NCBI GenBank assembly: GCA_025355855.1
Contig: JANXYU010000035.1
Span: forward strand, 20,604-84,603
Direction: 5' to 3'
DNA from: Actinomycetota bacterium
GTDB taxonomy: Bacteria; Actinomycetota; JAHEXW01
DNA length: 64,000 bases
Shown one piece after another: positions 10,566 through 35,563 of this stretch. The notes beneath the pieces were generated by a model, which worked only from the letters and a program-made list of their open reading frames with translations, was not told the origin of the DNA and did no database searches. The position numbers and the translations under genes were made by a program. How positions within the stretch are numbered: the stretch's first letter is position 1; each line of letters opens with the position of its first letter.

Positions 10566-11563
10566 GCGTAGATAACATAATTCAACAATCTCAGAGCAAA
10601 CGTAACAAAAAGTTGCTTCTGCTCGGCGGTCTTATTCTCATCCTGATTCTGATTATCATCGCGGTGCTCTATTATTTCCTGCACAAGCAATCGATTACCA
10701 GCGCCTTGCCGGGCCGGGCCACGGCGCCGATTTACCGCAGCTCTTTGGAGGGCGGTCTGGATTGGCCGCTCGGGGTTACGGTCAGCCCGGACGGTAATAC
10801 CATTTACGTGGTCGATTCCAATAACAAGATGGTCAAGATGTTCGACCCCAATGGCACGCAAACCGGCAACTTTGGACAAAGACCGGCCGACAAAACCGCG
10901 GACACGGCTTTCTCCAACCCGCTGTACGCCGCGGCGGCGTCGAATGGAAAAGTTTACGTGACCGACAGAAGCTCGGCGATGGTCGTGGTCTACGACCCCG
11001 CCACAAAGCAGACGACCAGATTCAGTCCGCAGGTCGATAAGACTTTTACCTGGAGCCCTCTCGGCATCTGCGTCGACAAGAAAGACAATATCTATGTTAC
11101 CGACGCGACCAAAGGCACCCATCGGGTCCTGGTTTTCAATCCGAACGGCAAGTTGATTCTTCAATTCGGCAAGGAAGGCCAGAACCAAGGCGAGTTCTCC
11201 TTCCCGAACGGGATCACCGTCGGAGGGGACGGCTCTATATATGTGGCCGACAGCAATAACAGCCGCGTCCAGGTCTTTAGTAAAACCGGCAAATACAAGT
11301 TCAGCATAGGGAACGCCGGCGGCAAGGCCGCGCTGGGTCATCCTGTGGGGATTTGTTTCGATGTCAGCGGAAACCTGAACGTGACCGACACGTTCGGCCA
11401 TGCCGTGCAGGTGTACGATAAAAACGGTAAATATCTCTATAAATATGGCGAATACGGAACGAAAAATGGGCAGTTCCAATTTCCTATGGGTATTGCGTCG
11501 CTAAATAATTCGGTGTATGTTGTCGATAGAGAAGGTAAGAGGGTTCAAATCTGGCAGCATTGA
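10562..11563 (+). CDS. NHL-repeat six-bladed beta-propeller protein, N-terminally membrane-anchored
   Basis: Six repeats of the NHL signature (G...YV.D..N.R..VF...G; FS.P.GI). Confidence 0.8.
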   Translation: MSVDNIIQQSQSKRNKKLLLLGGLILILILIIIAVLYYFLHKQSITSALPGRATAPIYRSSLEGGLDWPLGVTVSPDGNTIYVVDSNNKMVKMFDPNGTQTGNFGQRPADKTADTAFSNPLYAAAASNGKVYVTDRSSAMVVVYDPATKQTTRFSPQVDKTFTWSPLGICVDKKDNIYVTDATKGTHRVLVFNPNGKLILQFGKEGQNQGEFSFPNGITVGGDGSIYVADSNNSRVQVFSKTGKYKFSIGNAGGKAALGHPVGICFDVSGNLNVTDTFGHAVQVYDKNGKYLYKYGEYGTKNGQFQFPMGIASLNNSVYVVDREGKRVQIWQH

Positions 11564-11723
11564 TGACTCGAAAAGGTTGTTTTTTGCTTACCGAAGTGTT
11601 ACATTGGAAAGGTGCTAGAGGTAAACGTATCTACTGGTCATAATGCACCTCAGCTCTGATAGTGAGTAGCAGTTCCGGCGAACAAGCATAAGGAATGAGC
11701 TTACTAGCAAGGCAAGGGGCATC

Positions 11724-12827: not shown

Positions 12828-12828
12828 G

Positions 12829-13982: not shown

Positions 13983-16900
13983 TTGGTTAAACTAGCTAAG
14001 AGCCACCCGCTTAAGTTCATAGGACTTGTTCTCGGTCTTGTCGTCATCTATGTGTGTCTGGGGACAAATGTCCTTATCCGAACCGCGCAAGGCGAAGGCG
14101 CCATCGGCGCCGCCTGGGCCATCCACGTTGATACGCCCGTTACGGTTAAACTTAACCAGACTTTTACCGTTAAGGTCGGTTTAGTCGACCAAATGGGCAA
14201 ACCGCTGACCGGGCGGACCTACGGTACCGGTTACGGCCAGTTCTACCTCCCCGGTGACGCCATTAAGAACGCCGACGGACAAGTGGCCGAATACTGGGCC
14301 GACACCAAGAACGTGCGTGAGGTCAAAGACAAGTCAGATAACGGCACCGGCGTTTACGCGATACCGGTAATCGTCAAAGCCTGGCCCGCTCCCGTCAGCT
14401 CTAATATATATACACTGGAAGCATCCTACATCGGCCAGGGTGCCGGTTCGGCCGATCAGGCGACTGATCCGACGTTTGCCTTGGTTGACAGGACGACGTT
14501 CACCGCCGACGGCGCCGACGGTACGGAAGGCGTGATCAGGTACGCGCCGGTACTCACTAATAAGCTGACTGTTAAAGTCCCGGTGACGCAACCCGATAAA
14601 CCTACACCTGAACCACTCCAAAACATAGTCACCGTTCGTGTGAAGCCGATTGCCCAGATAAGAGACTCTGTGCATCACAACCGGAAACTGAGCGGCTTGG
14701 CTGATCCCCTGGATACGAGCAACTGGCTGGCACCGACCGCCGTTGATAATACCGGCCACAATGTCGCTGTCACCTTCGGAACGATTAAAGAAGAGACCGT
14801 CATCAAGCACGGAGCCAAAGGCAACACAACCGTGGGGATAGGCGTTTATGATGTTCAGCTGATTATTACGAGCCCGGTCACACTGGCCGGCAAGCGGGCC
14901 GCGATCACGTTCGGCTTGGACGCGACCGGCGTGCAGATGAAGATGAGTACGACCGTCAACTTCTCGACGGCGGTGGAAGAATCCGCGAATTATAACTCTC
15001 TGTACGGTGTCCCATATCTCGTAGAGGTGCCGCACACTCCGGTTATCTACGATGATCCGGATATGGATTTCTTCTGGGTCGGAGTCACGCCGCTAAATGC
15101 CGAAGAGCGCTTTGCCGATTACGACGTCTATCCGGTGACCGACACCGGCGAGGTCACGAACTCCTTCTACATGATTAACGAAGAGGGGTTACGGGTCAGG
15201 ATCAAGTGTCTTCGCCTGTATGCCACAATCGAAGATCCCGATATGATCGAAGTTGGCACTCCGCCGGAACAGGTCTCGCTTAACGTCAAGGGCGCCGAGA
15301 TGTTCGTGCGCGAGAAAACCGGCAATCCGGCGCAAGACGTTCCGCCGGCTGGCGCGGGCGGCGGCGCCGGAGTTGGCGCCAACGGTACCGGATTTGCGAT
15401 GCGGGCGGTCGACGGAGCCTTTAACAGTCCTTACGAGCAAGTCAAATATGATATGTATCCGACCGGCTCCGACCCGACTTCACTCTACGCCAGTACGCTG
15501 GCCGAGAAACAATATCTGTTCTGGGTCCATGGTAAGAATCAGCTGGATGTTTGGGGTTACTACGGTATAGACGCAACGTCTATCCCGGTTCCCAAGATAC
15601 TAAGCATCGACCGGACGGCGCCGACGGTATCGATTACCGACCCGCCTTTCGAGAACCCGGCCCGACAAGTAGCCGGCAATCACTTAAGCGTAGCCGGAAC
15701 GGTCAACGCCGACAACGGCGGCACTTTCAGGTCTTCGCTCAACAGCGTCGAGATCTATGACGGCTGGGACGCCGCCTGGACCGACGCCGGCATCAACCTA
15801 GACAAATATACGAATACCTGGTCCACCATGTACGACACGCTTTTCGAACCCGGCAACGCGTACACGCTGCAAGCCAGAGCGATCGACGGGGCCGGCAACA
15901 TGACACCTGCCGGCAGCTACGGTACGCGCAACGTCATCATCGATAACACCAAGCCGCTTGCCAGTGTTTCTTCGCCCGGCGACGGCATGGGCTATCCGAC
16001 CGGGACGACTAATATCACCGTTACCGGCGCTGTCTATGATCCGGACACGGCCACGATCGGCGACTTGAGTTTTGACCATTACACTGTGGAGTGGGCTCCG
16101 GGTATCAAATTGAGCGGCGACGCCGACACCGGCTGGACAATGATCAATAGCGGCACCGCGGCCGTGGGCGGGGCGTCGACGACGGGTACCTTGGCCAACT
16201 GGAACGTTGGACCGACCGGGGCCAACCTTACGGAAGGTCCGTATTCGCTGCGCGTCCGTTGCTGGGACAAGGCAGGCAACCGCAGCGATGAGAACCCGAC
16301 CGGGTATAACAACCTGATGTACGTGTTTATCGACAGCAGTAACCCGTTTTCCGCGCTGACCGTTCCTTATGTTGACGGGTCGGCGAACAATTGGACAGCC
16401 TCGACGATTCGCGGGACCGGGCGCGATTTCATGGCGGTTGGCGGAGCGCAGCGCTACGAGGAAGACGCCGCCGGCATCAGCTACTTCACTAGCTCCGGTT
16501 CGGCGGGCGGCTGGGCACTGGCAACCTCGACCGATAATTCCTTTAGCAATAACGGGGCTCGCTACGCGGCCACAGCCAATTATTACGCTCAATTCACCTT
16601 CACCGGCACCTATGTAACCTGGGTTTCTACCCGAGGCCCGAACCGAGGTTCCGCTCAAGTGTGGATCGATGGCGCTTTCGTCAAAACCGTCAATCTGAAT
16701 GCCCCTGGAGTAACCTATTATTATCAGCAAGAGGTCTTTTCCAAGACATTTACCACGGGCGGATCACATACCCTAAAAATCGTCGTTGTCAGCGGTCAGG
16801 TCGACGTCGACGCAATGGATCTTTACGCCGGGTCCGGTGTCAACCTTATCGACACTCGGATCAGACGAGTTGCGGATGGCTACTACTGGCATGACAGCAC

Positions 16901-19900
16901 CGACGCCACCCCGAGCTACCGGAACACTTTCCAGCCGGCTTCAGCAGGCACGCCTTGGCTGGCCGCTACCGTTAATTCCGGGCGGCATACCGCCTACGTG
17001 ACCAACTGGCAATACAGCGTCGCGGCGATTCCCAGTCATACCCAGGTCGATATCTCTACGAGGGCTACGGATGACACGGGGAACGTGGAAGCGTCACCGA
17101 CTTCAACACGGATCCTGGTGCAAACCGAAGCACCCGTCACTACCTATCAACCGCCGGCCAACGGTCTGAATAACTGGTACGTTCTTGTTATGCCGGACAA
17201 CATAGTGCCGCCGTTGCTGCTTACCGGTACGGAGCCGTCCTCGCCCAACGCTGGCGCCAAAAACATCTACTATCAGTGGACTTCAACGGCCGTCGGGACA
17301 GCACCGACTTCAGGCTACATAAATTATTCCGCCGCTTCTCCGGCGACCTCGATCTCGCATATCTTAGATTTGGATTCACCAAGCCACGGGTTGACACAGG
17401 ATGGAACTCGGCGCCTTTGGTATTATTCCAGCGACATTGTGGGTAACTCGGAAACGCCCCACTATACTGACTTCAGCCGCGATATCGTCGCGCCCGTCGC
17501 GCCGGCATTCACGGCGCCCCAGCTGCCCGATTATCAATACCAGCGGGCCACGGTTTCCTTGACGGGCAATACCAGTGACGCGACTTCCGGCGTCAACAAA
17601 GTGGAGATGACAGCTCAGAACAATGCTGGTCTGTACTGGGGCGGACCCGGTACGACTACTTGGACTTCGACACCGGTCTGGTTCCAAATCTCCGGAACAA
17701 CGGCTTGGACCTACGGCTTCAACTCAGTCGCCGCGGCCGGCGGTGACGGCAACTATACCTTTAGAGCTAGGTCGACAGACAACGCGGGCAACGTGTCCGG
17801 TGTCGGGGCGCTGACGTGCGTTATTGACAATACGGCCCCGACGACGTATCACACGTTTAGCATCCCGTCACCCGACGGCGACAACGGCTGGTACAAGACT
17901 GATATCTCGGTCAGCTTGGTTCCTAGGGATCCGGCGCCCGGTTCCGGAATCAATTTGACCTATGGCGGCTGGAACTTCAATAACAGTAATGTGAATATAA
18001 CGGGTCAATGGGGCGGCCTTAGCACCAATCCCGACTTGAACGGCACGTATTATTTCGGTTACTATTCAACCGATAATTCCGGAAATAGCCAGACCCCTGT
18101 GTTTGTCAACTTCAAGAAAGACTCCGAACGTCCATTCTCGACGATCACGACTCCGACTTTAGACGGCCAGTATCTCAGACGGTCCATCGCTTTCGCCGGT
18201 ACGGCCTGGGATCCCACGAACCCCGGTTCCCCCGGGTCCGGATTGCAGCGGGAAGAAGTCACCATTCGGGAGAACTTCGCCCCATTCTATTATTGGAATG
18301 GTGTTGCCGGAGCGGGGGCCGCTTGGACCGCTACACCCGTTTGGGTACCGGCGACCGGCTCGACCAGTTGGACCTATAGCTGGGATACGCTCAATACGAA
18401 TGTTCCGCAGGATAACGCGGATTACAAATTAGTAGCGCGGGCCGTAGACAATGCGGGCGGCGCCCAAGTTACCCCGGTGGAGCGGGTTGTTCACGTCGAT
18501 AACACGCCTCCGGTCGTTACCTTAGTCGACCCGCCGGACAACGAAGGTTTGGTCCCGACGGACTATCCAATCCGCGCTACGTTTAGCGAGAAAATGGCGC
18601 CGGGAACAATAAATAGCCCGGCGGCCAACTTTATTATCAAGAATTCCGTAGGTGCGGCGATGCCCGGAACGATTCTGTATAGCGAGCAAGGCGCCAGCTA
18701 TTTCGCGGTCTTCAGTGTAACCGGTACGTTCTCGCGCGGCGCCGTTTTGACCGGTGTCGTCAACCGGGGCGCGACCGACTTGGCCGGTAACCCCGTCATC
18801 GTGAATCACTCGGCCTCCGGCACTTCGATTGTCGGCCAGGAGCCTTGGAGCGCCATAACGTATTCCGGCGCCGGCTGGAGTACGGTAAGCGACGCGGGCG
18901 CCAGCGGCGGCGCCTACAAACACTCCAACGTAGACACCAACTACGCCGAGGTCACATTCACCGGAACCGACTTCAAATGGCTCTCCGGCAAAGGTCCGAA
19001 TTACGGTATCGCGCACGTTTGGTTGGATGACACCGTCGATCAGGGCACATTTGATTTATATAATGCCAGCCAGCAATACAAACAGGCAATCGTCAACTTA
19101 ACCGGGCTGACGGACACCACTCATAAGCTGAAAATCATTGTCACCAACGCGAAGAACGCCGCCTCCTCCGACTATTTCATCGACATTGACGCGTTCGAGG
19201 GGGCAGTTAACACGACTTGGAAATTCACGACCGCCGGCGTTGACGCTCAGATCTGGCAGCCGGTAACGGGTTCGCGCGTCTATGGTCAAGTGCCGATCAT
19301 GGGTCAGGCCAACGGCGAAGCGTTCCAGCAGTACAAGCTGCAGTATAAAAAGAACGACGGAACGGATACATTCCACGACTTCGGCGTGGTTCATACGACG
19401 CCACAGGTTTCGCAGGTCTGGCCTTTCCAGACTGACTGGTCCGACGGCGCGACCGGCGGACCTAGCCCGCAAGAGGTCATTGACCCGGCGAATCCGGAAC
19501 ATCCGGCGGGACGTTATCACACGGCCACTAATATCACGGCCAACGGCGCGGACGCCGCCTCATCGTTGCAGCTGTCATCGGCCGGCACAGTCTGGCCTTA
19601 TCGCAAAGCAATCACAATAACTAATACGGGCGCCCAGATGACGGATTATCAGATTCGTGTACCTGTAACTTTCGTCACCAGCCACATGAAGGCAAATTTT
19701 GACGATATCCGGTTCACCGACAGTAACGGCCAAGACATCCTAGCCCACTGGAAGGAATCCTTTACGGCGTCGTCGGCGGCCGTCTTCTGGACAAAGATCC
19801 CCGTAGTACCCGCGGGCACACCGGCGAACCCAACGGTTAAAACTATCTACATGAACTACGGCAACTTTAATGCCCAGAGCGGATCATCTAATGGCGCCAA

Positions 19901-22900
19901 TGTCTTTGACCGTTTCGATGACTTTAACGACGCCTCGCTCAATAGCAGCGTGTGGACCAACCTGGGCGGAGCGTCCGAAGGCAGTGGCACGCTGAACTTC
20001 AATGTCGACGCCTACAACTACAACGATTGGACGGCCGGCGGCCGCAGCGCGCCGGCGGTGAAATTGGCGACGCCGCCGACTGGCGACTTTACCGCGCGAA
20101 TCAAGATTTCCGCGTTCTCGGCGCAAGCCTATACTCAGGCCGGTATCTCCGCTTATAACTCTGATATCTCGGCTTATCTGATGGGGTTGGAGAATAACGC
20201 AACCGTAACGCGATACCAGCTCGACAAGATCGGCGGAACGGCTATCCCGGCGACTTACTACGCCAATAACCAGGCGACGAAGTTCCTGTATATCACCAGG
20301 TTAGGCGCAAGCTATATCTTCCAGATCTCAGACATAGACGGTACCAACCTGCAGCAGATCGGCACGACACCATACAACGACATTCCGTTGAGTAACGTCG
20401 TCCTATTCGCACGCGAATGGTACAACCCGGCGACCGGTACTTCCGGCTATCCGAGCGTAAACATGGACGACTTTTTTGTCCAGAAATATTCCGGTACGGC
20501 CACCGCGTCTACTTTCGTCAACAATGTCACAGTGGGTAATCCCGGAGCGGAAAATATGGACGGGCCGTTGGCGACCGCTTACGCGGCCAGCGGTTCGCTG
20601 GTTTCATCCGTCTTTAACTCCACATCCCCCAACGATTGGGGCTTGGTTAAGTGGACGGAGAGCGTCCCGACGGGTACGAGAATTACGATTCAGGTACGAC
20701 ACAACACGACTGCCGCCGACAACAATCCCGAAGACGGGGGTTGGAGCGCTTGGTCGGCTCCGATAACCGTATCGGCCGGTGAACAGATTCCCGGATTTAA
20801 CGCGCAGTACATTCAGTACAAGGTGAACATGTTCGCCAACTCTAACGCGACTAAGACGCCGGTTTTGAACGACATCACTTTCTATAACGGAGTCCTGGAG
20901 ACTTGGGACACAACGTCGTTACCTCTAGGAGACGGCTCATACACAATCCGCCTGCTAGTGTCCGATCAGCTGACCGATCCGCCTGATCCGTGGAAAACTG
21001 ACGCTCCCGGCAAGCACTCGATTTCCGCTCAGGTCGTCGTGAATGTTGAAAACACCAGCAAGCCGACATCAACCATAACAGCCCCGGCAATTGCGCCACC
21101 GAAAAACACCACGGCCGTACAGATCAAAGGCACGACCGATGTCACGGGTACCGGTTACGACGAGTTCCCGGGCGTGGGTAAAATCGAGATCAGAGTGAAG
21201 AGAAGTTCCGACGGTCTCTACTGGAGCGGCAGCGGCAACAATTGGTCGTCCAATGCCAACCAATGGATTTTGACGACCGATATCGAGGGGGCGGCGGCGT
21301 ACCGGTATTGGAAATACTCACTCAATACAACGTTGCAGGATTCCGGAAACTCGGTCTTTACCGACGGTTTATATACGATTGAATCTAAAGCGACGGACAA
21401 AGCGGGGGCCCAAGCGCTGTTAAGTCCGGATCCCTATCCTTTGATTACCATTAGAATAGACAATACCCCGCCGACCGGATCGATAACGTTCCCGGCGTCC
21501 AATGGCTATGTCAGCGGCGGGTTTGTCTCTGTTGACGGCGGCGTCAACGATCCGCCGGACGACGCCAACCTTCTTGACTTCAAACTAGAATATCGCAAAA
21601 CCGGGGCGTCGACCTGGAACGTGATCGCCAACGATAGCTATGAACATCCGCGGCTGCCGTTAGGTACCCGCTACTGGAAGCAAACGTCCGGCGCGGACTT
21701 CAACGCCGGTTCGAACGCGCTGGCCAACGGTAACGGAACGACCTTGATGGCCACAACCGTTTTGGCTCAAGGCACGACGACAACCGCCCTGGCGGATACG
21801 CTGTATCTGGGCGGCGCCTGGACCTTCGACGCCAACAGCGGACTATATACGCTGGTTTTCGCCAATCGTACGCTGCTTGCCGACGTCGATTTCCTGACGC
21901 TGCAAGGGGAAGTCAGGTTGGCGCCCGGCTCGTGGCTGCCGTATCGGACTATCCTTTTGGTCGGCACGACTACGACCAGCTTCGACGATACCACCAATAT
22001 CGGCGGTGTCTGGTCGAATGCCAACGGACTATATACTTTAATCACGGCCAACCGCTTGGTGTCGACCGGAGTCACCTTGCAAGGCAAGTTGAATATGGGC
22101 GGGCGGGTCGAGATGGATAGGTTCTTGTTGACGGACGGCTTTAACGGGTCATCTATCAACGGTACGAACTGGCTGAGTGTCGACACGGGCGGTAACATGT
22201 CAGTAGCTAATGCCGTCTCGGTCAACGGCCCAAACGATTCACAGCAGATGACATACACGCCGGCTTTGGCTACGGTACGCAATTTTGACCGGTCGACCAC
22301 GCAAAACATCGAGGCGGACTTCACTTTCAGCAGCTTTACGGCGACTTCCTTGGGCAATGCCGGCACTTATTTCGGCTGGAAGAACACGACATCGCTCTAT
22401 GACCTCGGGCAGTATGTCCACGCGTTTTGGATTTTCAACGGCCAGGTTAATGTTTATAACAATGGCGCCTCGGCCAGTACAGGCTACTCTCTGACAGCCG
22501 GTGTCAAGTACCGTTTACGGGTCGATCTGAAAACCGCCGGCGGAGCGACCTACTATTTCAGTAACGACGGAGGTATGACCTGGACTACGGCCTACGACAC
22601 CGCCGCCGGCACGGCTACGCCCCTTAAGGCGGGATTCACGAATAACAAGTATCCCTACCTCGGTTATCCCGTCAACACTTTCACGTTCGACACTGTGACT
22701 ATTCAAAAATATCTGACCGGTCCGAGCACCTACACGTCGGCCGTTTACGACGCCGGCGCATCCATCAACTGGAACACCACCGGCCAGATCAAATGGAGCG
22801 AAGCCAACGTCAACGGAACCACGAGCGATGTTACACTGCAGACGCGAACCGGTTCCTCGGCGACCGCCGGAGATCAAAACTGGACCGGCTGGAGCACGTC

Positions 22901-28900: not shown

Positions 28901-31900
28901 GACCGCCTCGCCGTCTTACTGGTTCCCGGTCAACTCGAATCCGCGCTACAATCAGGTGACGGGCACCCCGCCCAACGATTATCTCGGTAAATTCAAGCCG
29001 CCATATGCCACACTCGACCCAGGCAACCAATTCCTGGCTGGGTGGGACCGTGCCAGCGCGGAAGGCTGGACGGCCGCCGGTTTTACGGCCGGACTTTCGA
29101 ATGGCGCTATCGGCGGTACGACCAATTCGACCGACGCCAGCTTGACGAGTCCGGGGATTGCCCTTGACAGTAACGTGTCTAAGGTCTTGCACGTGCGGAT
29201 GAAGAACGCCAATACAGCGGGCGATTCCGCCCAGTTCTACTGGTTGTACAGCTACCCCTATTCGGGATATTATGTGACCGGCAATGAATTTCTGCAACTC
29301 GGCGAGCTGCAGCCGACAACCCAGAATGAAAACGGCACATTCTCGGCGAGCCGAGGCATCTCGTGGCCGCTTGGACCGGCCAGTTACGCCGGTAAGTGGG
29401 TCGACTATCGCCTGAACATGAAGACCGGACAGGTTAGCGGTACGGCCAGAACGGAAGGCCCGACCACGACCACCGGTACCTGGACGACGGAGACCAATCC
29501 CGACGCCAGTGACGGTACCTCGCTGTACGCGACCGCCGCCGGCTCGGCGTCATATACGTTTAGCAACAACAATATCTCGGTCTTTACGACCAAGGGACCC
29601 AATCGCGGCAAGGCGCGTGTGTATTTTGACAACGCGTTAATAGTGGACGGGGACAATAAACTGACGACCGACAACCCGAACGATATCAACAAGTCCGGGC
29701 TTGATCTATACGCTCCGGTCACCCTGGGCCAACAGCTGGTCTACAGCAAGACGGCGATTCCGGATGTCTATACTTTATCGTCACCACGCACGCTGTCCAG
29801 CGGGTCGTCACTCCAGAGCCAGATGAACCTGACCGCCGGATCCGTCTTATCGATTGGCTCGACGCTAAAGATCGGCACCATCGCTCAAAATGCCGGCGAC
29901 GTCGCCAATATCGGCGGCTTTTGGACCGGAACCGGCCCTTGGACCCTCATCGGCACGCGCGCGATCATCAACAGCAACGTGGGTCTTCAAGGACCGTTAA
30001 CGGTAGTCCAAGGAGCGATCTTGCTCGCAAACTCCGCTATCAATACGAACTCGACAACCAACTCCTTGGTCGATACGCTTAATGTCGGCGGCAACTGGGT
30101 ATTCAGCAATACTCATACGATAAAGATCGAGTACACGGGTGAGAAAAACACCCTCTCCACCGGGACCCGAATCGATGTTGACGCCTACGAGGATACGTCT
30201 CTGCTGCAGGACTACCCCACCGGCTGGCCGGCGGTAGGCTTCTGGGCCGGCACCATCACCCAGATCAGACTTGATCCTAATTCAACCAGCGGCAACATAT
30301 TCGGTGTTGACTACATATCCCGGGAGGCGTCGGACGGCGTCTATAAGATCCGCTTGAGCGCATACGATAGGGCCGGACGGACCGCATCCACGCAAAGAAC
30401 CATAAACGTCGATACCACGCCGCCGAAGTGCATTCTAACGACGCCGACCAATATGCAATTCCTGTCCAGCGGCACCAACGTCAGCGTTACGGGCAACGCC
30501 GGCGACTACAACACCAACGGTGTCCAGAGCGGGGTCAACAAGGTTGAAGTCAGGGTTATCGCGGGTGTCAACGGCTTGACCGCGAATCCGGGTCCGTGGC
30601 AATTGGCAACGGGCACGACCAGCTGGAGCAAGACGATAAGTATCGCCGATGGCTGGTACGGGGTGCAGGCGCGCGCTACGGATAACGCCGGCAACATCCG
30701 GGAATCGAACATCGTCTATGTCACCGTCGACAACACACCGCCGCCGGTGCCGCGCTTGCGAGCGGTTACGTCCAAAACCGCGGGCGGAATACTCTTATCC
30801 TGGACGCCGGTCAAGGATGAGGGGTCAGGCGTCGACTACTATGTCGTCTATCGGAACAATGTTCCGATCACCGATAAGCTGTACTATCCGGACATGCGGA
30901 CAATCGACACCGTGGAAACCGGTACTACGCCAAAGAACTTCGGCGGTTCCAGCGACGAGATCTTCCGCAAATATTATGGCTGTAACGCGATCGATAAAGA
31001 CGGGTTTGGCTTTAACGCGAACGCGAACGTCAGATACGCGGTTCGCGCCGTAGACGCCGCCGGAAACTATTCGGCTAAGTACAGTCTGGCCGTGTACTAT
31101 GACACCAGACCGCCGGACGCGCCGGGTAACCCTGCCGCGTCGGTCGCCGGTGTCACCAATACAGGTCTGCTTTCATGGAGTCCTTCGGCCGACAACCAGG
31201 GCGTCGCCGAATACCGGATATATCGCGGTACTTCGCCGGGCTTCGTCGCTCCTGACGAAACGAAACAGGTCGGTTCCTGCGACGTGTCCGATCCGGGTAG
31301 CGGCGCCACAACGGTCACCAAGTTCTACGACCCGAATCTAGCCTGGAACCAGGACTACTACTATAAGGTAGTGGCCTTCGACGATATGATGAACTACTCA
31401 TCTCCGAGCGCCGAGGTCCATATCAAGACGCCGGCGTCCAAGACCGACTTTAACAGCGCCCTGCCTCACCTGGCTTATTCCAGCAATCCGACCGAGTGCG
31501 CCTTGTGTCACCGGGCGCATACGGCCAAAGGCGAGAAGCTAATCAACGAGACATATGAAGCCAAGTTATGCTTTACCTGTCACGACGGCTCCGGTTCGAA
31601 CTCCCCGACCAAGGCCGAGTTCGACTACTCGCCATCCGGCGCGCATCGTGTCCGAGACGAGCTGTATCCGGCGGGCAAGTTGTCTTGTATCGATTGTCAT
31701 AACCCGCACTTGAATACGGAAGCGGCCTCGGTCGACAACTTTGACGATGACCTTAGGCTTAACACCGATCCGGTTACAGGTAAGCCGATATCCATAATTC
31801 CCACCGTCCCCAGTGATTGGACCTGCACAGGCGGGAATTGGGCGATGTCTACCAGCCTGATCGGCAGCCCGGCCTATCCTGATCCGACCCACGCGGAGCT

Positions 31901-34900
31901 GCGCCAATCAGACACCGGCGCGAGTGCCGCGTTCGCCAAAAAGGATACCGGCTTGGTCGGAATTGCCAGCAAGGGCGGCTACTTCTCAACAGAGGTGAAA
32001 CTCAATAGTGACGGCCGGGCTTATCTAAGCATCGCGGGAGACGGATCGGCCTCCAGCGGGCTGATTGGCTCGATTACGCGGACGGGATCATCGGCTGTCT
32101 TCTCACTGACGGATGGTATCACGACCAAAACCGCCAGTTTCGCGTACGATTCCGCGATTCAGTATCGCATTAACTTAAAGATCAACCCGGAGCGCTGGGT
32201 GCAAGGAACCGTTACTACGGTTACCAAGGCCGATCTGCCGGACGGTCACGATACGATAACCGACGCGGCGGTTGCGCGCGGCGACTTCATCGCTAGCGCC
32301 ACTTCGTTTGTGGGCTCCTGGGTCGGTCTCGGCACCAGCGGCGCGTCGGCCGATTTTGACATGGTCAAGATCAATAATCCGGGCATGCTCCAGACTCGCT
32401 ATCGCGAGTTCACTCAGACGTCAGGTTCCAGCTATAGCATTCCCGATGACCGTGTTCTTACCGAAGCGTTCTGTCTGTCCTGCCACGGCACGTCGAATGA
32501 CAACCCGGGCGGCAGCCAGATGCAGTACTATACCTCCATCCATAACCCGGAAATGGGCGGCATGCAGGGTCAGATCAGCGACCAAGACTTAACCAACTAT
32601 GTCCGGAACAACCCGGGCCAGGTCACGCCTCGTTGGCAGGTTATCCGGGATGAATGGAAGGATCTTAAGACCAATCCTGCCTACGTCCTGTTGGGCACGG
32701 GACAAACCATCGGGTCATCGCTGAAGAATACCTCGAACGGTTGTTTCTACTGCCATGGCTACCACGGCCTGCAGTTCTACTATAGAACGCAGAAGGGCGA
32801 GGAAGAGCTGTGTTACAACTGCCATGGTCGGACGGCCAACAAATCCAGGGACGGCTGGAATGTCTACCAGCAATACAACGGCTTTGTCCAGCAGAACTCG
32901 CCCTTCCTGACCTACGCGGGCACCTGGCTGACCGAGGAAAGCGCCAACTATGGCGACAACGCCGTCAAATACGCCGTCGGCGGCGTCGTTGTCCCGCCCT
33001 GGTACAACGCCTCGTGGGTAAGCCGGAAACTGATCACGATCAATAATCCAAACGTCGGCGTGGACAACTATCAAGTCAAACTGACTATCGCCAAAGAGCC
33101 CGGCATGAAGGCGGATTATTCCGATCTTAGGTTTGCCACCTCAGACGGCACGACGATGCGGACTTTCTGGATGGAGAAATACGATTCCGCCTCGGCTATC
33201 GTCTGGGTCAACCTGCCGCGTTTGGACAGCGGCAACAGCTCCAACAACAATAAACTCTATCTATACTATGGCAACCCCGGCGCGGCGTCGGCCTCCAATA
33301 TTGTCGGAACGTTCCTATACGCCGATGACTTTACCGCAACAACGATCGACTCATCCTGGTCACCGGTCGGTTCGGTGACAATGGACGGAACCGCTGCCGG
33401 TTGGGTTACGCTGAATTCCGTCGGCGCCACCGGCCCGGCGACCATTACTCATAGCTATCCGGTCCAGACCGGCGACTATGTGGTTGAGGCTAAGGCGAAG
33501 TTCCCGTCCGTCTACCGTCAGCGCCCGCGTCTGTTGAAATCGGACAACACCGATCCGACGGGCATCACCGACTACGGTTTCGGCGACAACCAGGTAACTG
33601 TCACCGCCTACGGCGGCGGCACTACCTTGACCGATTACATGACCAGCTGGTGGAATGGTGATCCGTCAGCGACAACAGCAGTACCCCCGTGGGACAACAA
33701 TGCCGGGAACGACTATGTTACCGGCTTGACACCGCAGGAACTCTTGATGCAATATAAACTGCAAGCCTCACCACAGCAATTCACCTGGCAATATTACGAC
33801 TACGCCGGTTATAACAGCGGCGGCGCCCCCCTGCGGACGCACAGCACGACCGGCGGAACCACCAATACCTATGCTAAGGTTCAATTCTCGGGTTCGCAGA
33901 GCGACAACTCCGACTGGCTGATCGATTGGGTCCGCGTTCGCAAGTACTTGCCGACAGACCCGACGGTCGTCTATAGTCCCCCTGACGGCACAACGGCCAA
34001 TTCGGTTTCCTTCACGTTCACCGGAACGGAATTCTCCTGGGCCTCGACCAAGGGACCGGATCGCGGCGTCGCCACCGTCTTTATCGACAATGTCTCGCAA
34101 GGCGACGTAAACTTGCAGCTGCCGCCCGAGCAAGGTTATCTCTACAACACGACCGTATTCAACAAGCAATACCTGTCACTGACGCCGCACACCGTAGTCA
34201 TCACGGCGAAAGCCGGCCGAGTCGACATCGACGCGGTTCAGGGCGGCACCAACGGTTCACGCCATGGTTTGACGATTCGCGACGCCCAGATAAAATGTAC
34301 CAGCTGTCACGGCCAGCGGGCGATGACCGACCGGCATGTCTACGAGGGCTTTGCGACGTCGATTATCGCCAACCCGGCTAATATCAAGCAGTACTGGTCT
34401 GACATGCGCAACGTCAACAAGACAATCAATGACTACTGCAACACGTGTCACAAGGAAGCGGATACGAGAGGCCGCGTCTTGCGCGAGACCCATACGTCCA
34501 GCAAGATCATTCCTTATACCATCAAGTATCCGCCGCTGATCACTACGACCTCGGCTAACGGTTTCGACCGGACCGGTTATACCCTGGGCGATATCTACCC
34601 GATCCAGGAGAACTTCACTGGCGTGGTGAAATATCCGCTGGCCGCTTGGACGACCGATTCGCCGGGTACGGACGATTATGAAGGCGGCGAGGATATCTAT
34701 AGTTCGCCGACCAGCCCCGATATCACCGCTTACGTAGAGTACACGTTCACCGGTACCTACTGCGCCTACGTGGCGCGCTATGGACCGGACAGCGGAATCG
34801 CTCAGGTGCTCATCGACGGGCAACGCTACACAGACGGCAACGTCTCGTTGCCTGGGGATAACCCCAACGAATACTCGGGTGTCGACCTCTATAGCTCTGT

Positions 34901-35516
34901 GCCTGCCTATCGAATCGTCGCGGCCACCCGCAGCAGTCTCCCGATGGGTTCGCACACGATAAGAGTAAAGGTTACGAGCAATAAGAATGCCTTGTCCAGC
35001 GGTTATAGAATTGATGTCGACGCGTTCAAATATGCGGTACCGCGCGTCGGCCACTATCTGTTCGCGCCGCAAGGCCCGGCCACGACGATAATATCGATAG
35101 CCGATCCGACTCACTTCACAGTGGCGAACGCCGGGATGGCTCAGTTGGCGGTCGGCAACACCATCACCATCGACTTCGGCGAAGTGCCGCATCCGGCGCA
35201 ATCGATGACAATCGTCAGTTTGGCGGGCAATGCCGTCGAGGTATCGAGCGGGCTTAACGCCAGTCACACGGTTGACTGCACGGTATCCAACACGACCAAG
35301 GCCAACTGCGCCGGTGTTTGTCACGACCCGTTGCCTGACTATATCAAGAACTCTCAGGAAGCCAAGACCAAGATCACCTGCGTCACCTGTCACCATCCGC
35401 ACGCGACGCCGTATCAAAGGGTTGTCAGGTGGCCGGAAGACACCAAAGTAGGTAATATCGTGACCGAGGGAGCCTGCCTCCACTGTCACAACGGCTCGGT
35501 TAAGTATAATTATTGA
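13983..35516 (+). CDS. Giant (7177 aa) mosaic cell-surface protein: N-terminal TM/signal anchor, tandem Ig-like modules, 8x ~110-aa 'TFTGT..GPNRG' beta-modules, 3x DUF2341, 2x LamG, Gly-rich (PF12810-like) domain, 2x FN3, and a C-terminal OmcS-like multiheme module (10 CXXCH + 1 CX3CH) split by lectin-like insertions
   Basis: 21.5 kb without an in-frame stop; TTG start with RBS GAGGAAAGG; domain signatures read from the translation (see findings); ends in TGA at 35514-35516. Confidence 0.85.
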   Translation: MVKLAKSHPLKFIGLVLGLVVIYVCLGTNVLIRTAQGEGAIGAAWAIHVDTPVTVKLNQTFTVKVGLVDQMGKPLTGRTYGTGYGQFYLPGDAIKNADGQVAEYWADTKNVREVKDKSDNGTGVYAIPVIVKAWPAPVSSNIYTLEASYIGQGAGSADQATDPTFALVDRTTFTADGADGTEGVIRYAPVLTNKLTVKVPVTQPDKPTPEPLQNIVTVRVKPIAQIRDSVHHNRKLSGLADPLDTSNWLAPTAVDNTGHNVAVTFGTIKEETVIKHGAKGNTTVGIGVYDVQLIITSPVTLAGKRAAITFGLDATGVQMKMSTTVNFSTAVEESANYNSLYGVPYLVEVPHTPVIYDDPDMDFFWVGVTPLNAEERFADYDVYPVTDTGEVTNSFYMINEEGLRVRIKCLRLYATIEDPDMIEVGTPPEQVSLNVKGAEMFVREKTGNPAQDVPPAGAGGGAGVGANGTGFAMRAVDGAFNSPYEQVKYDMYPTGSDPTSLYASTLAEKQYLFWVHGKNQLDVWGYYGIDATSIPVPKILSIDRTAPTVSITDPPFENPARQVAGNHLSVAGTVNADNGGTFRSSLNSVEIYDGWDAAWTDAGINLDKYTNTWSTMYDTLFEPGNAYTLQARAIDGAGNMTPAGSYGTRNVIIDNTKPLASVSSPGDGMGYPTGTTNITVTGAVYDPDTATIGDLSFDHYTVEWAPGIKLSGDADTGWTMINSGTAAVGGASTTGTLANWNVGPTGANLTEGPYSLRVRCWDKAGNRSDENPTGYNNLMYVFIDSSNPFSALTVPYVDGSANNWTASTIRGTGRDFMAVGGAQRYEEDAAGISYFTSSGSAGGWALATSTDNSFSNNGARYAATANYYAQFTFTGTYVTWVSTRGPNRGSAQVWIDGAFVKTVNLNAPGVTYYYQQEVFSKTFTTGGSHTLKIVVVSGQVDVDAMDLYAGSGVNLIDTRIRRVADGYYWHDSTDATPSYRNTFQPASAGTPWLAATVNSGRHTAYVTNWQYSVAAIPSHTQVDISTRATDDTGNVEASPTSTRILVQTEAPVTTYQPPANGLNNWYVLVMPDNIVPPLLLTGTEPSSPNAGAKNIYYQWTSTAVGTAPTSGYINYSAASPATSISHILDLDSPSHGLTQDGTRRLWYYSSDIVGNSETPHYTDFSRDIVAPVAPAFTAPQLPDYQYQRATVSLTGNTSDATSGVNKVEMTAQNNAGLYWGGPGTTTWTSTPVWFQISGTTAWTYGFNSVAAAGGDGNYTFRARSTDNAGNVSGVGALTCVIDNTAPTTYHTFSIPSPDGDNGWYKTDISVSLVPRDPAPGSGINLTYGGWNFNNSNVNITGQWGGLSTNPDLNGTYYFGYYSTDNSGNSQTPVFVNFKKDSERPFSTITTPTLDGQYLRRSIAFAGTAWDPTNPGSPGSGLQREEVTIRENFAPFYYWNGVAGAGAAWTATPVWVPATGSTSWTYSWDTLNTNVPQDNADYKLVARAVDNAGGAQVTPVERVVHVDNTPPVVTLVDPPDNEGLVPTDYPIRATFSEKMAPGTINSPAANFIIKNSVGAAMPGTILYSEQGASYFAVFSVTGTFSRGAVLTGVVNRGATDLAGNPVIVNHSASGTSIVGQEPWSAITYSGAGWSTVSDAGASGGAYKHSNVDTNYAEVTFTGTDFKWLSGKGPNYGIAHVWLDDTVDQGTFDLYNASQQYKQAIVNLTGLTDTTHKLKIIVTNAKNAASSDYFIDIDAFEGAVNTTWKFTTAGVDAQIWQPVTGSRVYGQVPIMGQANGEAFQQYKLQYKKNDGTDTFHDFGVVHTTPQVSQVWPFQTDWSDGATGGPSPQEVIDPANPEHPAGRYHTATNITANGADAASSLQLSSAGTVWPYRKAITITNTGAQMTDYQIRVPVTFVTSHMKANFDDIRFTDSNGQDILAHWKESFTASSAAVFWTKIPVVPAGTPANPTVKTIYMNYGNFNAQSGSSNGANVFDRFDDFNDASLNSSVWTNLGGASEGSGTLNFNVDAYNYNDWTAGGRSAPAVKLATPPTGDFTARIKISAFSAQAYTQAGISAYNSDISAYLMGLENNATVTRYQLDKIGGTAIPATYYANNQATKFLYITRLGASYIFQISDIDGTNLQQIGTTPYNDIPLSNVVLFAREWYNPATGTSGYPSVNMDDFFVQKYSGTATASTFVNNVTVGNPGAENMDGPLATAYAASGSLVSSVFNSTSPNDWGLVKWTESVPTGTRITIQVRHNTTAADNNPEDGGWSAWSAPITVSAGEQIPGFNAQYIQYKVNMFANSNATKTPVLNDITFYNGVLETWDTTSLPLGDGSYTIRLLVSDQLTDPPDPWKTDAPGKHSISAQVVVNVENTSKPTSTITAPAIAPPKNTTAVQIKGTTDVTGTGYDEFPGVGKIEIRVKRSSDGLYWSGSGNNWSSNANQWILTTDIEGAAAYRYWKYSLNTTLQDSGNSVFTDGLYTIESKATDKAGAQALLSPDPYPLITIRIDNTPPTGSITFPASNGYVSGGFVSVDGGVNDPPDDANLLDFKLEYRKTGASTWNVIANDSYEHPRLPLGTRYWKQTSGADFNAGSNALANGNGTTLMATTVLAQGTTTTALADTLYLGGAWTFDANSGLYTLVFANRTLLADVDFLTLQGEVRLAPGSWLPYRTILLVGTTTTSFDDTTNIGGVWSNANGLYTLITANRLVSTGVTLQGKLNMGGRVEMDRFLLTDGFNGSSINGTNWLSVDTGGNMSVANAVSVNGPNDSQQMTYTPALATVRNFDRSTTQNIEADFTFSSFTATSLGNAGTYFGWKNTTSLYDLGQYVHAFWIFNGQVNVYNNGASASTGYSLTAGVKYRLRVDLKTAGGATYYFSNDGGMTWTTAYDTAAGTATPLKAGFTNNKYPYLGYPVNTFTFDTVTIQKYLTGPSTYTSAVYDAGASINWNTTGQIKWSEANVNGTTSDVTLQTRTGSSATAGDQNWTGWSTSYTNPAGEAITSVPNRYIQYRVSETYTGTYAPNSPLPAVGDVTLSYTGGTGASQLEYWNTSGLQEGTYTLRLTITDKAGNTNTTPIESKPVTLDKTAPHASLNNIGTVFGAKRYIRANIGLTGTADDGMWTNRMPIAITNPTGSAQTDYQVKVPVTFAAGMRSDFNDLRFTDGSGNKLPYWIETFTASSAATVWVLLPALPSPGGTTIYMTYGNSAADVTNQSFNKVMRDANDMANAYRQDLPVTGAVGLWHLETPTTSGLNYLWTDSTANANNAVLDNGAWSYTQYGHMQGAAGAYFDGIDDVATVANSASLQALTGNATFEFWIYPQNISAGRSNPIDKSYGGQFSFTLETNGSLTYYHGTAKTNGSYTTFMAVPPGSLENNNWYHVAVVRDNTAKTLKGYLNGVLVSSTTYTILPGAATDNMTFGIGYAGTPFKGLLDEVRISNAALTSDAIMKDVGIRKWSASEPVAGAPGANAANIYEWGNFGHYELTFAGPEGGTIPPAFAGGTTPVTGGALGTWNTRAVQDGDNYSVKLYDIDLANNTATTSLTGMTIDNTPPRVSSMVPAKNETFVDDRISQKAYFTESVRAATLDTPAVSFTKKLMNLPNTLVAGTVKYTELGAMYYATFTQTTPPLTYDAWYTDTISPAVKDQAGNPLAVAFEETDALVSYTGTGWTDATSASASGGAYKWSNTAADDVTIGFDTDTAAGTGTAVAWVGQKGPNRGIARVYLDGVDVGTIDQYSATTVWQQPLYKTGDFTNGHHTLRIVATGTKNGASSDTRVDVDAFWLDFNTVWNFQVAGIEVGISSPTPNQRLRGTAPITGTADGSVASFQNWILEYAPHGTNSWTNITTSTTRVVNGLLANWATPASGQYDVRLTVNDTTSPTPRFKQKTVVVTVDNTNPTVSVDRLTYFRDSFDARDATNWSYNNALTTVPVSLNGQNVIRNVGAGGQTWASNFYRPNYTIKDRDQVSFDFRMASGATSFYNFLEGNDNQGEYMRWGIVATAPSSIVAESKDKSGYASTALALGDMTNKWFHATLSVDDAAAGTFSTFVYEINNPGNSATFTKAMPRGISWRFHSSMDVGTGYIDNYEEVRPAAATVIQGQSFTLAGTANDALTGIDDVQINIDGRAWWEPMGPSTIVDTCDAIAGWASSSGTLLLNAPDIVSSFSSNGTFVMPSGPSTVKALVVGGGGGGANTGSGGGAGGYIYQSALSLTPGSYPIVVGGGGAGGATTAAAGTKGNNSTFAGMTAEGGGNGVSHGSGNGGNGGSGGGGAISTTTLFAGGTGSQGNAGGAGFLETNWLGNSGGGGGAGTAGVTGGNYPGAGNGGTGLSNFISGSAVTYAGGGGAGEVNGSYVGVGVDGGGNANVNAAGSNGVNGRGGGGGGGSYNSGTYTNGGSGGSGVVIVSYADSSGTSQIEGNSALRLQKTSTASTQNAFSKTISATDMSGKRINVWLYVRDATARNKISQVQMYVGGSTWLLQKAVDRSSLAIGWNTISIDMMSPDGVWFSGGTPDLRSVTTIRLDVNTNNASDLYGSGEFIMDRWTLSPSTRVDQSVGTTSTGLVGDWHLDENAATTAIDSTGNNNGTVSGTGYWTTGRYGASAMLGSGDDMVNVPETNTALRLGAQQSTEAWVKFNGTAADSVRLVGKGNGNNRNYGLWLMTDGSILNQFQNTSWAVYSCQSTTKVNDGAWHHVVGTYNGSVMKVYIDGVEAASYSPGAITPVTSVDPLTIGYGNAGAALNGVIDEVKVYNVALTADQVSSRYVEGPVTSGSPYLTYQGNWRHLLNPVGTYMSGGSVKTSNHATDTATVTFTGTSVTWIGTRGPDRGIAQLFVDGFRVTDGDTLLTGDTGTGSNGLPNMSGFDLYSVAGSYRQLLYTKSGLSNAQHTLTITVTGAKNGAATDGYVDVDAVDLGNAYPWTYTFSTAGWAAGAHTLTARTFDKAGNTATAPTAYTINIDDADPVVALTSPADGIWSNASAFDIKGRATDADFNYYMLEYGLTASPSYWFPVNSNPRYNQVTGTPPNDYLGKFKPPYATLDPGNQFLAGWDRASAEGWTAAGFTAGLSNGAIGGTTNSTDASLTSPGIALDSNVSKVLHVRMKNANTAGDSAQFYWLYSYPYSGYYVTGNEFLQLGELQPTTQNENGTFSASRGISWPLGPASYAGKWVDYRLNMKTGQVSGTARTEGPTTTTGTWTTETNPDASDGTSLYATAAGSASYTFSNNNISVFTTKGPNRGKARVYFDNALIVDGDNKLTTDNPNDINKSGLDLYAPVTLGQQLVYSKTAIPDVYTLSSPRTLSSGSSLQSQMNLTAGSVLSIGSTLKIGTIAQNAGDVANIGGFWTGTGPWTLIGTRAIINSNVGLQGPLTVVQGAILLANSAINTNSTTNSLVDTLNVGGNWVFSNTHTIKIEYTGEKNTLSTGTRIDVDAYEDTSLLQDYPTGWPAVGFWAGTITQIRLDPNSTSGNIFGVDYISREASDGVYKIRLSAYDRAGRTASTQRTINVDTTPPKCILTTPTNMQFLSSGTNVSVTGNAGDYNTNGVQSGVNKVEVRVIAGVNGLTANPGPWQLATGTTSWSKTISIADGWYGVQARATDNAGNIRESNIVYVTVDNTPPPVPRLRAVTSKTAGGILLSWTPVKDEGSGVDYYVVYRNNVPITDKLYYPDMRTIDTVETGTTPKNFGGSSDEIFRKYYGCNAIDKDGFGFNANANVRYAVRAVDAAGNYSAKYSLAVYYDTRPPDAPGNPAASVAGVTNTGLLSWSPSADNQGVAEYRIYRGTSPGFVAPDETKQVGSCDVSDPGSGATTVTKFYDPNLAWNQDYYYKVVAFDDMMNYSSPSAEVHIKTPASKTDFNSALPHLAYSSNPTECALCHRAHTAKGEKLINETYEAKLCFTCHDGSGSNSPTKAEFDYSPSGAHRVRDELYPAGKLSCIDCHNPHLNTEAASVDNFDDDLRLNTDPVTGKPISIIPTVPSDWTCTGGNWAMSTSLIGSPAYPDPTHAELRQSDTGASAAFAKKDTGLVGIASKGGYFSTEVKLNSDGRAYLSIAGDGSASSGLIGSITRTGSSAVFSLTDGITTKTASFAYDSAIQYRINLKINPERWVQGTVTTVTKADLPDGHDTITDAAVARGDFIASATSFVGSWVGLGTSGASADFDMVKINNPGMLQTRYREFTQTSGSSYSIPDDRVLTEAFCLSCHGTSNDNPGGSQMQYYTSIHNPEMGGMQGQISDQDLTNYVRNNPGQVTPRWQVIRDEWKDLKTNPAYVLLGTGQTIGSSLKNTSNGCFYCHGYHGLQFYYRTQKGEEELCYNCHGRTANKSRDGWNVYQQYNGFVQQNSPFLTYAGTWLTEESANYGDNAVKYAVGGVVVPPWYNASWVSRKLITINNPNVGVDNYQVKLTIAKEPGMKADYSDLRFATSDGTTMRTFWMEKYDSASAIVWVNLPRLDSGNSSNNNKLYLYYGNPGAASASNIVGTFLYADDFTATTIDSSWSPVGSVTMDGTAAGWVTLNSVGATGPATITHSYPVQTGDYVVEAKAKFPSVYRQRPRLLKSDNTDPTGITDYGFGDNQVTVTAYGGGTTLTDYMTSWWNGDPSATTAVPPWDNNAGNDYVTGLTPQELLMQYKLQASPQQFTWQYYDYAGYNSGGAPLRTHSTTGGTTNTYAKVQFSGSQSDNSDWLIDWVRVRKYLPTDPTVVYSPPDGTTANSVSFTFTGTEFSWASTKGPDRGVATVFIDNVSQGDVNLQLPPEQGYLYNTTVFNKQYLSLTPHTVVITAKAGRVDIDAVQGGTNGSRHGLTIRDAQIKCTSCHGQRAMTDRHVYEGFATSIIANPANIKQYWSDMRNVNKTINDYCNTCHKEADTRGRVLRETHTSSKIIPYTIKYPPLITTTSANGFDRTGYTLGDIYPIQENFTGVVKYPLAAWTTDSPGTDDYEGGEDIYSSPTSPDITAYVEYTFTGTYCAYVARYGPDSGIAQVLIDGQRYTDGNVSLPGDNPNEYSGVDLYSSVPAYRIVAATRSSLPMGSHTIRVKVTSNKNALSSGYRIDVDAFKYAVPRVGHYLFAPQGPATTIISIADPTHFTVANAGMAQLAVGNTITIDFGEVPHPAQSMTIVSLAGNAVEVSSGLNASHTVDCTVSNTTKANCAGVCHDPLPDYIKNSQEAKTKITCVTCHHPHATPYQRVVRWPEDTKVGNIVTEGACLHCHNGSVKYNY

Positions 35517-35518
35517 TG

Positions 35519-35527
35519 TGGTATAAT
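35519..35527 (+). promoter_or_regulatory. Extended -10 element TGgTATAAT at the very 3' end of the giant gene, positioned to drive the downstream cytochrome gene
   Basis: TG at 35519-35520, TATAAT at 35522-35527; no obvious -35. Confidence 0.3.
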
Positions 35528-35563
35528 CGAAAAACACCAGTCAACAGCGATAATGAGGGAGAA

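Follow-up and report, generated by a model that had tools for sequence, protein, structure and literature searches.

Diverged jelly-roll repeats and predicted haem segments in a 7,177-residue secreted protein of an Actinomycetota bacterium

The giant multihaem cytochromes of anaerobic methanotrophic (ANME) archaea carry 20-86 haems together with S-layer or pectin-lyase-like domains, and it has been suggested that they form the outermost step of electron transfer out of the cell (Chadwick et al. 2022, PMC9012536). The present analysis concerns a giant gene in a 64,000-nucleotide stretch of DNA from an Actinomycetota bacterium (contig JANXYU010000035.1 of assembly GCA_025355855.1, positions 20,604 to 84,603; the whole stretch is called the window below). 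An earlier note, made from the letters of this stretch, had described in the gene product a recurring module, termed TFTGT here after one of its motifs. It was set among copies of DUF2341 (a domain of unknown function), laminin G (LamG), glycine-rich and fibronectin type III (FN3) domains, and this domain list proved essentially right in content and coordinates. The repeats proved to be genuine copies, old and highly diverged, and no artefact of assembly. The TFTGT module belongs, as a diverged member, to the CE2_N / CBM6-35-36 jelly-roll superfamily, in which it forms a large, uncharacterised and usually tandem-arrayed subfamily. The reading favoured from sequence, with a probability of about 0.6, is that the protein would be a cytochrome of the cell surface whose lectin-type modules hold it in a glycan matrix, within an electron-export chain.

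The interval to which the repeats had been assigned, 14000-35100, falls within one intact open reading frame (ORF). The region is a single genuine gene that selection maintains, and it encodes a secreted multidomain protein of 7,177 amino acids (aa).

13983..35516, plus strand: giant ORF, 7,177 aa, intact, with a TTG start
13983..14087, plus strand: N-terminal basic stretch, then a hydrophobic helix (MVKLAKSHPLKFIGLVLGLVVIYVCLG...), read from the sequence

A Shine-Dalgarno-like sequence, GGAAAGGA, lies a few bases upstream of the TTG codon, and an NCBI record on a 102.8-kb contig (P0280) holds the identical 7,177-aa protein with M as residue 1. The hydrophobic helix is 16 residues long, and the N-terminus is the same in an ortholog from an independent genome (P0130, described below). 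It would function either as a signal peptide of the Sec pathway or as a signal anchor. At the C-terminal end of the 7,177-aa sequence no anchor motif was seen.

Copies, fold and family of the TFTGT module

Seven copies of the module, m1 to m7, were located in the giant protein. Two hidden Markov models (HMMs) were used, one built from 5 copies and a deeper one from 56 sequences, and both found the same set.

16458..16829, plus strand: module m1 (CE2_N-like jelly roll), aa 826-949; HMM, with a weak Pfam CE2_N match
18837..19205, plus strand: module m2, aa 1619-1741; HMM; the copy used for the structure model
24885..25271, plus strand: module m3, aa 3635-3763; HMM
28212..28643, plus strand: module m4, aa 4744-4887; HMM
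29445..29765, plus strand: N-terminal part of module m5, aa 5155-5261; HMM
30108..30194, plus strand: C-terminal part of module m5, aa 5376-5404; HMM and motif search
32895..32987, plus strand: N-terminal strands of module m6, aa 6305-6335; HMM match over aa 6271-6331, profile positions 37-104
33990..34247, plus strand: C-terminal part of module m6, aa 6670-6755; HMM, profile positions 106-222
34605..35036, plus strand: module m7, aa 6875-7018; HMM

The intact copies gave i-Evalues of 1e-38 to 1e-62, far beyond chance. Regular-expression searches of the giant protein returned GP[ND]xG exactly 7 times and H-[TK]-x-x-[IV]...D-x-DA exactly 7 times. The earlier note had counted eight modules. All seven of the positions that it listed are real and the four peptides that it quoted are all present, but an eighth copy was not found with the two HMMs and three motif regular expressions across the giant protein. 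The best additional HMM matches had i-Evalues of 0.01-0.02 and scores of ~0-1 bit, and a six-frame HMM scan of the window detected no module outside the giant ORF. The module measures 120-145 aa and not the ~110 aa previously estimated. An ending of the HTL.I/D.DA type is common to all seven copies, whereas the "KN..S" element once included in it is absent from m1 and m6. The residues kept across the copies are G, P, F, W, H and D.

An AlphaFold2 (AF2) model of m2, made from a 56-sequence alignment, has a predicted local distance difference test score (pLDDT) of 95.7, a predicted template modelling score (pTM) of 0.89 and eleven beta strands. Its best Foldseek match in the PDB is 3nqh, the C-terminal domain of BT_2959 (E 1.2e-7, query TM-score (TMq) 0.77). 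This is followed by the Paenibacillus xanthan lyase 6f2p (E 5.8e-6) and the xanthan-binding module MiXBM, 7ehg (E 1.2e-5 to 1.4e-4). The N-domains of the CE2 esterases 6hfz and 2wao match at E 6e-4 to 1e-3 with TMq 0.63-0.65. Carbohydrate-binding modules of families CBM6 (2cdp, 1gmm, 8j3x), CBM35 (2wz8) and CBM36 (1ux7, 7ay3) match at E 1e-3 to 6e-3. The confident model and its matches to jelly rolls of this kind support the earlier suggestion of a carbohydrate-binding-type beta-sandwich.

Searches at the sequence level point the same way. The TFTGT profile also finds 3nqh in sequence (E 0.04). Single modules score 20.4-21.9 bits against CE2_N (PF17996), with E-values of 2e-4 to 5e-4 and a best member at E 5.3e-5, where the gathering threshold is 27.9 bits; they also give a weak sub-threshold match to CBM_35_2 (E 0.0012). 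Among top relatives of at most 1,000 aa that bear arrays of the module, 61 of 62 match CE2_N at E<=1e-5. The module had been thought impossible to place in a named family, a view that these matches no longer support. No SGNH/GDSL esterase domain was found anywhere in the giant protein by Pfam scans, and a literature search on CE2_N/PF17996 returned nothing relevant, only irrelevant chemistry papers.

The family is large. A full-library HMMER search recovered 12,253 representative clusters at E<=1e-3 and 5,455 at E<=1e-10, and the 150 best-scoring proteins carry 3-19 copies each. Partner domains in the 62 relatives include cohesin (8), TIG (8) and NlpC/P60 (6), as well as Amidase_3, SpoIID, YkuD and PG_binding_1 (2 each). 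The fold matches and the family census place the module in CE2_N / CBM6-35-36 as a diverged subfamily that forms arrays and is typical of secreted envelope proteins. A very common uncharacterised repeat, until now visible only as sub-threshold CE2_N matches, thereby receives a name and a fold and becomes a candidate new glycan-binding or cell-wall-binding module.

Divergence of the repeats, nested inserts and other domains

Repeats of this number in one gene raise the alternative that the architecture is an artefact of assembly, with collapsed, expanded or chimeric repeats. In the earlier note the repeats were held to predispose the gene to collapse or expansion, and identity of the copies at the DNA level was given as the sign of an artefact. 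The copies are instead too diverged for this, sharing 25-43% amino acid identity and 43-55% nucleotide (nt) identity. No exact DNA repeat in the gene exceeds 19 nt, the longest lying within the GGC-rich Gly domain, and the best DNA repeat family is one of 61 nt at 61-70% identity. Tandem Repeats Finder reported no tandem repeats in the gene.

An independent metagenome-assembled genome (MAG), nzgw113, holds a collinear ortholog at 83% nt identity on contig JAHEXW010000002.1 (locus L003). Its product, P0130, is full length at 7,157 aa and is 89.9% identical in amino acids, with 20 gap columns over 7,177 aa. It has the same seven modules, the same inserts and all 11 haem motifs of the window protein. 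The ratio of nonsynonymous to synonymous substitution rates (dN/dS, Nei-Gojobori) between the two is 0.06 overall and 0.03-0.14 across every domain. In a 51%-identical homolog, L001, each TFTGT module scores best against its positional counterpart. It follows that the copies had separated before these lineages parted and are not undergoing homogenisation. Assembly collapse is not a concern because the copies are diverged and an independent MAG has a collinear ortholog, so that the artefact is effectively refuted and its probability is close to nil. For annotation, the lesson is that a repetitive protein architecture need not be an assembly hazard at the DNA level.

The architecture is limited to a small clade, comprising the window protein, P0130, L001/P0121, L002/P0122 (labelled Chloroflexi) and fragments in L004. 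More distant matches from Anaerolineales are ordinary haem-dense cytochromes, with 26 haems in ~1,100 aa. Close relatives occur in a MAG with an Actinomycetes label, and the more distant ones come from Chloroflexota MAGs. The L003 ortholog (90% identical) comes from a MAG labelled 'Actinomycetes bacterium', and L002 and L004-L010 are labelled Chloroflexi, Chloroflexia or Anaerolineales. Either the label is wrong or the island has been transferred between phyla. The L001 homolog (301-12350 of ENA ERZ25039513 contig_69666) has no equivalent of the first ~3,400 aa. It was called as two ORFs (2,780 + 1,236 aa) with an ATGA overlap at the equivalent of window aa ~6000, and the first of these was called jointly with the N-terminus of a UbiE-type methyltransferase. 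A frameshift, a gene-call artefact or a true split of the gene could each account for the two ORFs.

Two of the seven TFTGT copies carry loop insertions, one of which is a complete DUF2341 plus lectin-like unit.

29766..30107, plus strand: 114-aa insert in the m5 loop, aa 5262-5375; self-comparison and homologs
21735..22112, plus strand: 'N-I-G-G-x-W' repeat region, aa 2585-2710; self-comparison, no Pfam match
33000..33311, plus strand: DUF2341 copy 3, aa 6340-6443, nested in m6; Pfam PF10102 and own HMM
33312..33989, plus strand: jelly roll resembling concanavalin A (ConA) and L-type lectins, aa 6444-6669, nested in m6; moderate-confidence model

The two parts of m5 have complementary profile coordinates, 78-164 and 165-201, with the 114-aa break between 164 and 165. 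The insert is homologous to the 'N-I-G-G-x-W' region (aa 2585-2703, recurring at 5281-5376; 30-37% identity), and neither has a Pfam match. It is present in P0130 and absent from L001. This suggests an intragenic copy-and-insert event between m5 and a region ~2,700 residues upstream.

Module m6 is likewise complementary in its coordinates (37-104 at aa 6271-6331 and 106-222 at aa 6670-6784). It is broken between profile positions 104 and 106 by ~334 aa, which comprise DUF2341 copy 3 and then the second, lectin-like domain. An AF2 model of the nested region reached a pLDDT of 72 overall and >90 in the DUF2341 part, and in it the second domain matched L-type and legume lectins in Foldseek at E ~1e-5. 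An alignment that mixed homologs of the module and of DUF2341 mis-aligned the N-terminal strands of the module and was discarded; the pLDDT of 72 came from a cleaner multiple sequence alignment. The domain-in-domain reading of m6 is adopted because of the complementary profile coordinates and the conservation in homologs, and not because of a confident three-dimensional model.

When mapped on the m2 model, both break points fall in loops, one before the H-T-L strand and the other between the 'SGG-x-Y-K' and TFTGT strands. The m6 counterpart in L001 is split alike, its m5 counterpart is unbroken and its m7 counterpart has an insert of its own of ~127 aa. With one insert shared, one absent and one private to L001, the loops of the module therefore appear to be recurrent insertion sites.

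The remaining domains of the giant protein were mapped by Pfam, own HMMs and chunked self-comparison.

18498..18794, plus strand: Big_5 immunoglobulin (Ig)-like domain, aa 1506-1604; Pfam
19590..19889, plus strand: DUF2341 copy 1, aa 1870-1969; Pfam PF10102 and own HMM
20595..20969, plus strand: ~130-aa repeated domain, copy a, aa 2205-2329; self-comparison, no Pfam match
22728..23129, plus strand: ~130-aa repeated domain, copy b, aa 2916-3049; self-comparison, no Pfam match
23280..23555, plus strand: DUF2341 copy 2, aa 3100-3191; Pfam PF10102 and own HMM
23796..24263, plus strand: Laminin_G_3 copy 1, aa 3272-3427; PF13385, 86.7 bits, E 2e-24
24564..24881, plus strand: Big_5 Ig-like domain, aa 3528-3633; Pfam
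26415..27128, plus strand: Gly_rich_2 (PF21722) domain, aa 4145-4382; 85.8 bits, E 5.7e-24, profile 3-225/226
27726..28184, plus strand: Laminin_G_3 copy 2, aa 4582-4734; PF13385, 97.0 bits, E 1.5e-27
30744..31427, plus strand: two FN3 domains, ~aa 5588-5815; Pfam PF00041 and self-comparison

The three DUF2341 copies and the two LamG copies lie where they had been placed. The former score 71.1, 56.3 and 65.1 bits in order against a PF10102 gathering score of 23.4, and an own-built HMM finds exactly three; both of the latter pass the PF13385 gathering score of 27.6 bits. The FN3 pair is also upheld, with 31.2 bits against 25 in two stretches when the 231-aa segment is scanned alone. It is sub-threshold in larger slices, and its copies are 39% identical to one another. 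The Gly-rich domain is present at the expected place, but its description as PF12810-like does not stand, as PF12810 gives no match there even at E<=1 and the domain belongs to Gly_rich_2.

The two copies of the ~130-aa domain share 33% identity and the pattern '...W..I.W.......T.I....R......W..WS...', and have no Pfam, NCBIfam or PDB sequence match. An own HMM for further ConA-like domains gave nothing significant after DUF2341 copies 1 and 2 or at aa 2711, 3885 and 5917; a ConA-like follower of copy 1 is supported solely by a weak DUF1349 match. PDB sequence searches with both protein halves and the Gly-rich domain returned LamG-type matches only, or none.

More than a dozen Ig-like domains of the Big_13/OmpL47 type are present besides the two Big_5 domains. 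A super-unit of Big_5, TFTGT and Ig is itself duplicated, at aa 1469-1788 and aa 3492-3812, with 35-38% identity. The gene arose by ancient duplication and shuffling of beta-sandwich domains.

This setting brings up the alternative that the modules are ligand-free structural beta-sandwich spacers, which would lengthen or stiffen a fibre-like surface protein as Ig-like domains do. Their interspersion with many Ig-like domains and the tolerance of their loops for large insertions would agree with such a role, and the conserved G, P, F, W, H and D residues could all be structural. Each positional copy has nevertheless been kept distinct under purifying selection, and the fold class, like the nearest relatives of solved structure, is that of binding modules. 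The module also co-occurs with three other lectin-type families in one protein. A role as spacers is considered quite improbable.

Haem segments, possible role and gene neighbourhood

Ten CxxCH motifs and one CxxxCH motif, the feature that bears most on function and one not mentioned in the earlier note, lie within aa 5839-7169, in four short segments of the C-terminal 1,340 aa.

31470..31727, plus strand: haem segment A, CxxCH at aa 5839, 5863 and 5902; Paired_CXXCH_1 and cytochrome c3/c7-like
32433..32882, plus strand: haem segment B, CxxCH at aa 6164, 6254 and 6277; motif search and alignment
34248..34592, plus strand: haem segment C, CxxCH at aa 6772 and 6819; the most conserved part, dN/dS 0.005
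35283..35513, plus strand: haem segment D, CxxxCH at aa 7109 and CxxCH at aa 7133 and 7165; motif search

The order in this part is haem A, ~235 aa with no assignment, haem B, m6 with its nested DUF2341 and lectin-like domain, haem C, m7, a linker and haem D. The match to Paired_CXXCH_1 (PF09699) reaches 55.8 bits against a threshold of 20.6, and that to TIGR01905 53.2 against 25.2. The segments also match cytochrome c3/c7 and domains II/IV of MtrC/MtrF. Their dN/dS values are the lowest in the protein (0.005-0.035), and they form near-invariant blocks in a three-way alignment. By its motifs and HMM scores, the giant protein is predicted to be a multihaem c-type cytochrome.

In the favoured reading, the giant protein would be exported by way of its N-terminal signal or anchor. 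Its many weakly binding lectin-type modules would then attach it multivalently, through avidity, to a polysaccharide matrix, of which the likeliest would be the cell's own wall, sheath or exopolysaccharide. This attachment would keep the C-terminal part, with its haems, at the cell surface, where the protein could act as the outermost member of a chain encoded by neighbouring genes for NapC/NirT-type and MtrC-like cytochromes. An envelope polymer is favoured as the target because relatives of the module carry peptidoglycan-enzyme partners. A strict cell-wall anchor of monoderm bacteria was considered and rejected, as relatives are labelled Nitrospirae, Burkholderiales, Rokubacteria and MYXO-CTERM. 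No dedicated cell-wall anchor is claimed since the family is not restricted to monoderm lineages.

The placing of m6 and m7 lends itself to another explanation. The two alternate with haem segments B, C and D, much as carbohydrate-binding modules lie beside catalytic domains. The modules, these two especially, might thus dock the cytochrome onto an external redox partner and not onto its own envelope. Such a partner could be an organic-coated mineral surface, humic or polysaccharide material, or another cell, which corresponds to the "carbohydrate- or mineral-binding" role in the earlier note. The closest solved folds bind foreign polysaccharides (xanthan, xylan, agarose), and for those giant cytochromes of ANME archaea that have putative sugar-binding domains, recognition of partner cells has been suggested (PMC9012536). 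However, five of the seven modules lie thousands of residues away from any haem, the relatives joined to peptidoglycan-active enzymes point to envelope polymers, and the sequence is without any indication of mineral binding. Docking onto an external partner is regarded as unlikely.

Several observations weigh against a surface cytochrome tethered by glycan-binding modules. No single TFTGT module reaches the CE2_N gathering score. The census of partner domains was drawn from top-scoring multi-copy proteins of at most 1,000 aa, a biased sample, and the family also occurs in diderm lineages, as the four record labels above indicate. The AF2 model of the nested m6 is of moderate quality only (pLDDT 72, with 56-69 in the N-terminal strands). 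The 11 haems are spread over 7,177 aa in four separated segments, which may not form one conductive chain.

A wider proposal is more tentative and, taken as a whole, doubtful. TFTGT might represent a large unnamed class of envelope-glycan-binding repeats that tether diverse cargo non-covalently, including peptidoglycan hydrolases, cohesin proteins and this giant cytochrome. Its loops would be permissive for domain insertion, and m6 and m7 would place a sugar-binding surface directly beside the haems in this protein, which would couple electron transfer to attachment to a polysaccharide matrix.

How haems are placed outside bacteria that have no classical outer-membrane porin-cytochrome conduit is poorly understood. 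The giant protein suggests one solution, in which a few haem segments are embedded in an enormous scaffold of lectin and Ig domains. This scaffold could fix the haems in the wall, sheath or biofilm matrix.

The giant gene is surrounded by an extracellular-electron-transfer island of cytochrome genes, at 215-13950 and 35513-50556 of the window. The neighbouring cytochromes have 12, 14-15, 6, 6, 5, 6, 6 and 6 CxxCH motifs, with MtrC-like genes among them, and the island also encodes TPR and NHL-repeat proteins.

215-1963: two NapC/NirT-type decahaem proteins
5260-5892: Rex-type redox regulator
6612-8027: GAF-HD protein

At least seven consecutive or clustered ORFs of the EB_dh family (ethylbenzene dehydrogenase gamma-like, with a haem b/DOMON-type fold) lie at 37975-42294 and 48510-50556. 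Several have lipoprotein-type signals, and a Cx3-4CH motif is found in two (48510-49385 and 49303-50556). An 813-aa protein (42281-44722) with a weak spermine/spermidine-synthase-like methyltransferase domain mid-protein is flanked by the EB_dh genes and by a second block of cytochromes, three hexahaem proteins. Downstream of the island (50558-61923), B12-binding radical S-adenosylmethionine (SAM) proteins are encoded at 50558-51880, 54271-55662 and 60187-61923, and a UbiA prenyltransferase lies among them at 53415-54269. These radical SAM and UbiA genes may form a cofactor or lipid modification cluster.

Comparison with known binding modules and surface proteins

The nearest named relative of the module is CE2_N (PF17996; PDB 2wao, 6hfz), which has the same beta-jelly-roll fold and to which single modules give weak sequence matches. 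CE2_N precedes the SGNH esterase in family 2 carbohydrate esterases, whereas no esterase is attached to TFTGT here. Unlike CE2_N, TFTGT is arrayed and dispersed through a 7,177-aa protein and has hallmarks of its own (TFTGT, GP[ND]xG-x-A, H-T-L-x-I and D-x-D-A-F). The best structural matches, namely 3nqh, 6f2p, 7ehg and CBM6/35/36, lie at E 1e-7 to 1e-4 and TMq 0.66-0.77, and TFTGT shares only 11-22% sequence identity with these jelly-roll binding modules. They serve glycoside hydrolases and lyases, while TFTGT stands here in a cytochrome-bearing surface protein.

A second comparison is with surface proteins that combine DUF2341 (PF10102) with LamG/ConA-like domains, such as P0305, P0307 and P0312. 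In these a ConA-like domain comes after DUF2341, as it does after copy 3 in the giant protein. The giant protein differs in that one DUF2341 unit is nested in another domain and in its predicted haem-binding. In the library searched, no paper was found that mentions both DUF2341 and multihaem cytochromes.

For the protein as a whole, the ANME giant cytochromes are the nearest known kind, being very large and exported and having haem c segments joined to envelope or putative sugar-binding domains. Pfam scans of the giant protein found no S-layer (DUF1608) and no pectin-lyase domains, and its haem count lies below the ANME-type figure of at least 20. It is bacterial and has 11 haems in 7,177 aa, the non-haem portion consisting of DUF2341, LamG, CE2_N-like and Ig arrays. 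The combination is unusual, but every part comes from a known fold class. The giant protein would be a variant of a surface cytochrome fused to binding domains, with a function that we infer from its sequence.

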